From NCBI RefSeq assembly GCF_003334765.1, contig NZ_QOWT01000065.1: a stretch of DNA of 5,359 nt; one strand, written 5' to 3'. Source of the stretch: Escherichia coli. Lineage in GTDB: Bacteria; Pseudomonadota; Gammaproteobacteria; Enterobacterales; Enterobacteriaceae. Below the pieces are notes generated by a model that was given only the letters and a program-made list of their open reading frames with translations, was not told the DNA's origin and made no database searches. Shown one piece after another: positions 4,236-5,201 of this stretch (position 1 is its first letter; each line of letters opens with the position of its first letter). Both the position numbers and the translations under genes were made by a program.

Positions 4236-4988
4236 TTATAAATTTATATCAGTTTCAAAAAACTCACTAACCCCACCGTAATCAGTTACAATTTTCCATT
4301 GTACTTTACTACTCTTACTCACAGGAATCGGATATTCAAAAGAGGAAAACGGAGCTATATAATGATGTTCAGATATTTCTTCCCCCCCCACACGCAACTC
4401 TGATAAATTTATATAAAAAGGTGTTGGGTTGACTCCTTTTAATTTATTGTTAACCCTCTGCCACTTTACTTCTCCGGCAACATCTTCAGGATGTCCTTTT
4501 ACACTTGACGGACGGACAAACATCTTGATACAAGTACTTAATGAGACTTGCACATTCAAAGTTACATTGTTTAAACTATTTTTATTACTCTCAGCCCATT
4601 TTTCATCAGACTTTGGCGGAATTCCTTTCACACAAATCCATTGTAAAGTTTCCCGATCTTTCGGAAAATCACCACCTGTTCGAACAATACGAAGACGACT
4701 GGATTGTAAGGCATCAAGCCGAAATAACGGTGGCGTTATGATAAAAGGTGCTGGTGTTTTTTGGTCTTCTAATAATACCTCTGACTGAACTAACATTGGG
4801 TAATCATGATCATTAATAATTGTTAATGTTTCTCCAGAGGAAAAAATGTTATAAATCACACGAGTAGCCCCCAAATGCAGAGAAAACATTTGGGTCTTAT
4901 TTCCCTCGTTTTCAAACGTTTTTGCATTTGCAGATACAAAAAAACATAGCGGTAAACTAATTACCAGCAAAGCTGTTCGTATTTTCAT
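4236..4988 (-). CDS. Periplasmic fimbrial chaperone, PapD-like, FGL subfamily
   Basis: Start reassigned to ATG 4988..4986 (MKIRTALLVISLPLCFFVSANA signal peptide, cleavage after ANA); 250 aa. PapD-family motifs: TRVIYN, ITPPLFRL, RETLQWICVKGIPP, NPTPFYINL. Two Cys in the mature protein about 34 residues apart (WICVKG and STCIKMF), as in FGL-type chaperones such as Caf1M and AfaB. The 303-aa track ORF is extended upstream in frame into the IS3-like orfA start (ATG 5138); alternative in-frame ATGs at 5015 and 5009 have no better SD. Confidence 0.88.
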   Translation of the reverse strand: MKIRTALLVISLPLCFFVSANAKTFENEGNKTQMFSLHLGATRVIYNIFSSGETLTIINDHDYPMLVQSEVLLEDQKTPAPFIITPPLFRLDALQSSRLRIVRTGGDFPKDRETLQWICVKGIPPKSDEKWAESNKNSLNNVTLNVQVSLSTCIKMFVRPSSVKGHPEDVAGEVKWQRVNNKLKGVNPTPFYINLSELRVGGEEISEHHYIAPFSSFEYPIPVSKSSKVQWKIVTDYGGVSEFFETDINL

Positions 4989-5106
4989 ATATTTTCTTAG
5001 GGTAGTCATATGCATTTCTAATATAGAGTATATAGTGCGCCAATTTATTGTGAGATAAAAAAATATCATACATTGATAGTAAGAGTTAATAGAGCACCGT
5101 ATTGAC
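4989..5106 (-). promoter_or_regulatory. Putative promoter/regulatory region of the fimbrial operon (AT-rich leader between the IS3-like fragment and the chaperone gene)
   Basis: About 118 bp, strongly AT-rich, immediately upstream of the first operon gene. Contains several -10-like hexamers on the minus strand (TATACT, TATGAT) and A/T tracts of the kind bound by AraC-family fimbrial activators (AggR/Rns type). No -35/-10 pair with ideal spacing could be fixed by eye. Confidence 0.3.
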
Positions 5107-5201
5107 GCTTTTTTGCTGGTTGATACAGATTTTGTCATGTGAGTCACCTCTGACTGAGATTTTACTCACTTAGCCACGTCCACTATTGCTGGGTAAGATC
5201 A
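5107..5201 (-). mobile_element. Solo IS3-like left end fragment (IRL plus first about 11 codons of orfA), truncated internally
   Basis: Reverse complement of 5107-5201 reads TGATCTTACCCAGCAATAGTGGACGTGGCTAAGTGAGTAAAATCTCAGTCAGAGGTGACTCAC ATG ACA AAA TCT GTA TCA ACC AGC AAA AAA GCG. It is about 88-90 percent identical to the copy at 1-104 (2-bp deletion plus scattered substitutions), in the same orientation. Similarity to IS3 is lost after about codon 11 (MTKSVSTSKKA then SIRCS versus IS3 MTKTVSTSKKPRKQHS). Confidence 0.75.

Follow-up and report, generated by a model that had tools for sequence, protein, structure and literature searches.

Does the truncated end of an insertion sequence (IS) lying upstream of a fimbrial chaperone gene supply that gene with a promoter or a start codon? 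The question is raised by a 5,359-nucleotide stretch of Escherichia coli DNA (contig NZ_QOWT01000065.1 of NCBI RefSeq assembly GCF_003334765.1; the whole stretch is called the window below), which sequence comparison identifies as the agg3D-agg3C-agg3B-agg5A (AAF/V) operon of a pAA virulence plasmid of enteroaggregative E. coli (EAEC). Upstream of the chaperone gene agg3D stands an IS3-like end, and an earlier reading of the sequence alone had proposed that transcription or translation started in this stub could read into the operon, either giving the chaperone a 50-residue N-terminal extension or simply adding promoter activity. Our analysis indicates that the regulatory region (5201..4986) very probably consists of an inert IS3 stub followed by the operon's own AggR-dependent promoter, and that the open reading frame (ORF) running from one into the other is coincidental. 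The features concerned are the following.

5201..~5107, minus strand: IS3 left-end remnant of ~95 bp, comprising the terminal inverted repeat, the 5' untranslated region of orfA and the first ~10-11 orfA codons
5164..5159, minus strand: -10-like hexamer TAAAAT within the stub (5/6 consensus matches)
5150..5145, minus strand: Shine-Dalgarno (SD) sequence GAGGTG of IS3 orfA, 6 nt before the orfA ATG
5138..5136, minus strand: start codon ATG of IS3 orfA, in frame with agg3D, and start of a 300-aa chimeric ORF
5106..4989, minus strand: A+T-rich (71%) promoter and leader region of agg3D, not derived from IS3
5064..5054, minus strand: AggR-binding site ATTTTTTTATC, matching the consensus WWWWWWWTATC
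5032..5027, minus strand: -10 hexamer TATACT, 21 bp downstream of the AggR site
5018..5022, minus strand: predicted transcription start zone, 5-9 nt after the -10
5015..5013 and 5009..5007, minus strand: two ATGs in frame with agg3D on the predicted leader, not conserved as starts
4999..4993, minus strand: weak SD-like TAAGAAA, 4 nt before the agg3D ATG
4988..4236 including the stop codon, minus strand: agg3D, PapD-like periplasmic chaperone of AAF/III and AAF/V fimbriae, 250 aa (RefSeq, Pfam)
4988..4923, minus strand: predicted Sec signal peptide MKIRTALLVISLPLCFFVSANA, 22 residues, from sequence reading and hydropathy, with probable cleavage after A-N-A

The evidence that carries this reading comes from a published reporter study. 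Yasir et al., 2019 (PMC6392122) placed agg3D100, a 540 bp fragment, in a lacZ transcriptional fusion vector, where its activity was AggR-dependent; promoter activity was "completely abolished" by mutation of the -10 (307C) or of the AggR box (331C/333C), and AggR-dependence required only a single correctly placed AggR site. The extent of agg3D100 was deduced from the base numbering, which starts at the base next to the HindIII site. With base 307 placed in the -10 hexamer (5032..5027), position 1 of the fragment corresponds to window 4721-4726 and position 540 to about 5260-5266, a conversion that allows for a 1-bp indel of strain 55989 near 5209. The numbering is self-consistent in that bases 331 and 333 lie 24 and 26 positions from base 307, exactly the distances that separate the A of TATACT from the two T's of TATC across a 21 bp spacer. 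By this numbering agg3D100 covers the whole stub (5201..5107), and transcription reading through from the stub would therefore have reached lacZ. The loss of all activity on mutating either the native -10 or the AggR box, in a fragment that by deduction includes the stub, speaks against the proposal that the stub adds promoter activity.

The elements defined by these mutations are all present in the window. The 21 bp between the AggR site and the -10 falls within the 21-23 bp taken as the spacing for such promoters, the whole architecture of AggR site, spacer and -10 arose in 0.5% of shuffles of 5201..4989, and TATACT belongs to the sole sigma-70-like site reported by a promoter consensus scan of 4800..5359. 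Among the AggR-dependent fimbrial promoters described for aafD, afaB, aggD, agg3D and agg4D (PMC6392122), the window carries the agg3D promoter itself, that is, the type sequence. Fig. S5F of PMC7781526 gives an identical sequence for strains 55989 (AAF/III) and E36 (AAF/V) and marks the same AggR box, -10 and initiating atg (AAGAAAATATatgAAAATA); the window agrees with that sequence at every base of the AggR box, 21-bp spacer, -10 and ATG. Compared with the AAF/III prototype 55989 over 460 bp, the window, which comes from an AAF/V (agg5A) plasmid, differs by 1 indel and 1 substitution.

These observations suggest a simple order of events. The AraC-family activator AggR would bind ATTTTTTTATC (5064..5054) and recruit sigma-70 RNA polymerase to TATACT, and transcription would begin near 5020, some 118 nt downstream of the IS3 ATG, giving a leader of about 30 nt. 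Since this start would lie downstream of both the IS3 SD and the IS3 ATG, the main operon mRNA could contain neither. Translation would then proceed from the ATG at 4988, with its weak A-rich SD, to give a pre-chaperone of 250 aa, the first 22 of which form the signal peptide, and the IS3 stub upstream would be an inert leftover of a deletion, fixed in all agg3D loci examined. Both the promoter with its dependence on AggR and the start of the chaperone are already known, and the stub is an ordinary relic. As to the origin of the promoter, shared ancestry with those of aafD and aggD was considered and rejected, as alignment found no homology to the agg3D leader before the ATG; a blastn search of all plasmids with the leader and 5' coding region returned only 16 agg3D plasmids, with no IS3-free ancestor or related leader. 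It was also observed that the AggR box lies within a near-palindrome, GATATTTTTTTATC (5054-5067), which matches the consensus WWWWWWWTATC on both strands and so forms two overlapping, opposed AggR-consensus sites (5064..5054 minus, 5057..5067 plus).

By alignment, the stub is a remnant of IS3 and not an IS3 element. Positions 5201..5109 match the IS3 of E. coli K-12 with 92.6% identity (E = 6e-30), and alignment with three IS3 copies shows that the stub begins at the IS terminus TGATCTTACCC (5201) and that IS3 homology is lost after ...CCAGCAAAAAAGC, at ~5107 and about codon 10-11 of orfA, an inner boundary that is uncertain by about +/-10 bp. The inverted repeat, TGATCTTACCCAGCAATAGTGG..., aligns to the end of K-12 IS3 apart from 2 deleted bp (GTGG--ACGTGG), and the orfA start lies 63 nt from the IS end, versus 65 nt for the annotated IS3 transposase coding sequence of K-12. 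The terminus, the GAGGTG, the ATG and the first ~10 codons are conserved and colinear with IS3 (the stub reads MTKSVSTSKK, the intact element MTKTVSTSKK). Here the likeness to IS3 ends: in place of an orfA-orfB transposase with its -1 frameshift and DDE domain the agg3D leader follows the stub at ~5107, and no right inverted repeat was found after the stub, agg3D standing there instead. The sequence-only reading was accurate on this point, in that the truncated end does keep its SD and an ATG in frame with the chaperone, and all of its coordinates hold on the minus strand.

In IS3-family elements the native promoter is located at the left end, and an excised circle can form a strong junction promoter in which a right-end -35 is joined to a left-end -10 (PMC12095673). 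With only 95 bp left and no right end, the stub can neither transpose nor form such a junction. The arrangement resembles IS-borne mobile or hybrid promoters (PMC12095673) to the extent that an IS end with promoter-like and translation signals is aimed at the adjoining gene. However, mobile promoters of this kind are outward-directed, whereas at agg3D an internal deletion has placed the native, inward-facing end next to the gene, and agg3D expression is wholly dependent on its own AggR promoter in the published reporter data (PMC6392122).

We then consider the open frame itself. The agg3D ATG (4988..4986) is in the same frame as the IS3 ATG, 150 nt away, and the 49 codons between the two contain no stop, versus 5 and 1 stops in the other two frames. 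As had been supposed, this in-frame IS3 start explains the 303-aa product of the ORF list: the ORF opens at GTG 5147, within the SD, the limiting stop upstream being the TGA at 5168..5166, while a product from ATG 5138 would have 300 aa, corresponding to Agg3D with a 50-residue extension. The orfA portion is open by origin, and shuffles took in only the non-IS leader (119 nt, 71% A+T), in which the required frame was free of stops in 5.3% of the mononucleotide and 4.8% of the dinucleotide versions; the phase match with the IS ATG contributes an additional factor of one third, and the observation is a post hoc one. The open frame is mildly unusual, with no sign of selection on it.

A comparison was made of the 16 agg3D loci with enough upstream DNA, which are 97-100% identical and fall into 4 haplotypes; the stub lies exactly 213 bp before the agg3D ATG in 16 of 16. 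Single substitutions that create a stop number 27 of the 441 possible (6.1%). Because the loci are so similar and so few substitutions make stops, persistence of the open frame is uninformative about selection. The extension does change as a protein: in pAA C700-09 a +1 insertion and a -1 deletion recast the 16 residues before the chaperone Met (TNILYIRNAYDYPKKY vs TIYSILEMHMTTLRKY), and these compensating indels show that it is not conserved. That the frame stays open from the IS3 ATG across the promoter into agg3D is a coincidence, without any coding role.

Several lines of comparison place the start of Agg3D at the ATG at 4988, which we take, by homology and annotation, to be the start codon. 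The RefSeq agg3D start in an identical sequence corresponds to window 4988. In a tblastn search with the 300-aa form, AafD (67.6%) and AggD (64.0%) align from residue 51, the Met of 4988, and the N-termini of the three chaperones (Agg3D MKIRTALLVISLPLCFFVSANA, AafD MKIRRIRLVLILGLVFFMNAQA and AggD MKIRRIVSTIAIALSVFTFAHA) share the MKIR and the layout of the signal peptide. When extrapolated, the NCBIfam profiles for SafB and SefB begin no more than 2-3 residues from the same Met. Consistent with the assignment to the Afa/Dr/AAF chaperones (AafD, AggD, DraB), with which it shares 64-70% identity, PapD_N and PapD_C domains and the MKIR... start Met, Agg3D matches Pfam PapD_N and PapD_C and the DraB structure (PDB 4djm; E = 6e-107, aligning from residue 84 of the 303-aa ORF), as well as the structures of SafB and Caf1M. 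None of these homologues, however, has an N-terminal extension like that of the 300-aa form. The hydropathy maximum of the 300-aa form lies at residues 55-68, and the extension holds only a short, weaker hydrophobic patch. The 50-residue extension is accordingly not borne out: the promoter lies downstream of the IS3 ATG, the homologues start at the position of 4988 and the sequence of the extension is not conserved. The remark that the chaperone's own SD is weak is, in contrast, confirmed by duplex energies with the 16S 3' end, which are -1.3 kcal/mol at the agg3D site TAAGAAA vs -7.1 kcal/mol for the IS3 SD. A third start, suggested by a 277-aa cluster representative, was rejected as a contig-end artefact, the contig in question beginning 62 nt before that ATG.

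The alternative closest to the original proposal is that the stub acts as a weak, AggR-independent promoter, yielding either a 300-aa chimera (OrfA residues 1-11, translated promoter DNA, then Agg3D) or added basal transcription. A number of points favour it and weigh against an inert stub. A C-to-A change has turned the canonical IS3 TAAACT into the better -10 match TAAAAT (5164..5159), in an IS end that in the family holds the native promoter (PMC12095673); the SD behind it is strong (-7.1 kcal/mol); the in-frame path is open in all haplotypes (4 of 4), even across compensating indels; and a scan reported no terminator-like site between the stub and agg3D. Further, the presence of the stub in agg3D100 is our deduction and is not stated by PMC6392122, and the reporter assays of that study were made in E. 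coli K-12, in LB, with a transcriptional fusion of low copy number; if the stub promoter were very weak or active only under particular conditions, its activity could lie within the reporter background. The agg3D start near 5020 is likewise placed from the position of the -10 and not mapped, primer extension having been performed for aafD and afaB only (PMC6392122). Set against these points, the TAAAAT hexamer has in our own scan a best -35 of only 2/6 and no TGn extended -10, and the promoter consensus scan of 4800..5359 did not report it. The reporter fragment deduced to hold the stub was silent without AggR or with the native -10 mutated (PMC6392122), the extension is neither conserved in sequence nor present in homologues, and a signal peptide 50 residues in from the N-terminus would be atypical for a periplasmic chaperone. 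We regard a functional stub promoter as very unlikely on this balance. A narrower form of it, in which a trickle of AggR-independent transcripts is efficiently translated from the IS3 SD and ATG into a 300-aa precursor whose internal signal peptide is cleaved, we hold to be extremely unlikely; if it were true, there would be basal mature Agg3D before AggR induction, indistinguishable from the normal product. With cleavage after ANA the mature N-terminus, KTFENEG..., would be the same from either precursor, so N-terminal sequencing of the mature chaperone would not discriminate between them, and it is peptides such as MTKSVSTSKKASIR... or CSINSYYQCMIFFYLTINWR that would count against a coincidental ORF.

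Two other possibilities concern the DNA around the promoter. The chaperone might start at one of the leader ATGs (5015 or 5009), giving MHMTTLRKY-MKIR... and lengthening the signal peptide by 7-9 residues; in most alleles both ATGs share the agg3D frame, both lie downstream of the -10, and the residues added are basic, which suits a signal-peptide n-region. Yet neither ATG has an SD (+0.2 kcal/mol), ATG 5015 would lie only ~3-7 nt from the predicted mRNA 5' end, and ATG 5009 is lost in pDEC15A, where it reads ATA. In C700-09 both are out of frame and belong to a 9-codon ORF, MHMTILKNI followed by a TGA that overlaps the agg3D ATG (ATATGA), and AafD and AggD begin at the MKIR Met. Use of either leader ATG is in our judgement highly improbable. 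The stub might instead have some other role in cis, with its inverted repeat binding IS3 OrfA in trans, or as a boundary to H-NS spreading, and in this way modulate the AggR promoter. Its identical position in 16 of 16 loci, while the DNA upstream of ~5225 varies between plasmid lineages, could be read in this sense, but recent common descent explains the fixation, the agg3D loci being 97-100% identical here; a single correctly placed AggR site suffices (PMC6392122), and no data point to such a role, which we consider the least probable of these alternatives. An inert stub ahead of an AggR-dependent promoter, with translation from 4988, accounts for the locus better than any of them.

The practical consequence of this reading lies in annotation. 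Because of the in-frame coincidence, a 300-303-aa "Agg3D" is called by ORF finders and by some pipelines, which creates an inconsistency in public databases: the exact 300-aa chimera of the window (UniRef100_A0A288XFM0, CAM3832685.1) is deposited as Agg3D and occurs on 139 contigs, while 43 contigs carry an allelic form of 300 aa (BBU16343.1, "periplasmic chaperone") and 641 the 250-aa form of the window. The pipelines were probably misled by the far better SD of the upstream ATG. For typing schemes, signal-peptide prediction and structure modelling, the first 50 residues of the 300-aa entries should be trimmed. The biological weight of the stub is small, and this annotation caveat is the useful outcome.

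The assignment of the wider locus follows from its close matches. pAA virulence plasmids of EAEC match the window at 99.3-100% identity, and the agg3D locus is a 100% match to that of pE1246_1 and other pAA plasmids. The coordinates of the remaining operon genes were taken from the RefSeq annotation of the identical copy in pE1246_1.

4181..1632, minus strand: agg3C, usher
1618..1178, minus strand: agg3B, minor subunit
1003..488, minus strand: agg5A, AAF/V major pilin

A further gene overstated by its longest ORF is agg3B, for which the ORF list gives 156 aa from a GTG (1178-1648, minus strand) vs 146 aa in RefSeq, where the start is the second Met of MMKKGIVSL (1618). Runs of eight G residues are seen on the minus strand within agg3D (4382-4389) and agg3C (2606-2613). 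A role of the G8 run as a phase-variation switch was rejected, since agg3D alleles vary there by substitution (G7A, AG6A) and not in length, with no sign of slippage. In aggD of an AAF/I plasmid a G10 run is found (about 1078-1087 of that locus).

IS debris near AAF operons is commonplace, and two further fragments are seen in the window. An N-terminal fragment of an IS256-family transposase (MDEKQLQALANELAKNLKTPEDL..., 243-407, minus strand) lies directly downstream of agg5A, so that IS remnants flank the operon at both ends. On the other flank, a different member of the IS3 family is represented by its terminal ~142 bp, at 5217-5358 on the plus strand and in the opposite orientation to the stub; this piece holds the last 32 codons of an OrfB-type transposase gene, which read TLEIFYNRQRRHSRLGNISPAAFREKYHQMAA before the stop, and a terminal repeat that finishes at 5358, and the IS-like end at 5329..5358 belongs to this element. 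Copies of the 5217-5358 segment are present at 97.9% identity in many E. coli chromosomes. The DNA upstream of ~5225 is different in pDEC15A and in pAA C700-09. Shigella and enteroinvasive E. coli plasmids of the pINV type carry the same two IS fragments in the same order, ~600 bp further apart (NZ_CP065614.1, 2501-3348), an arrangement which hints that the IS junction is older than its association with agg3D.

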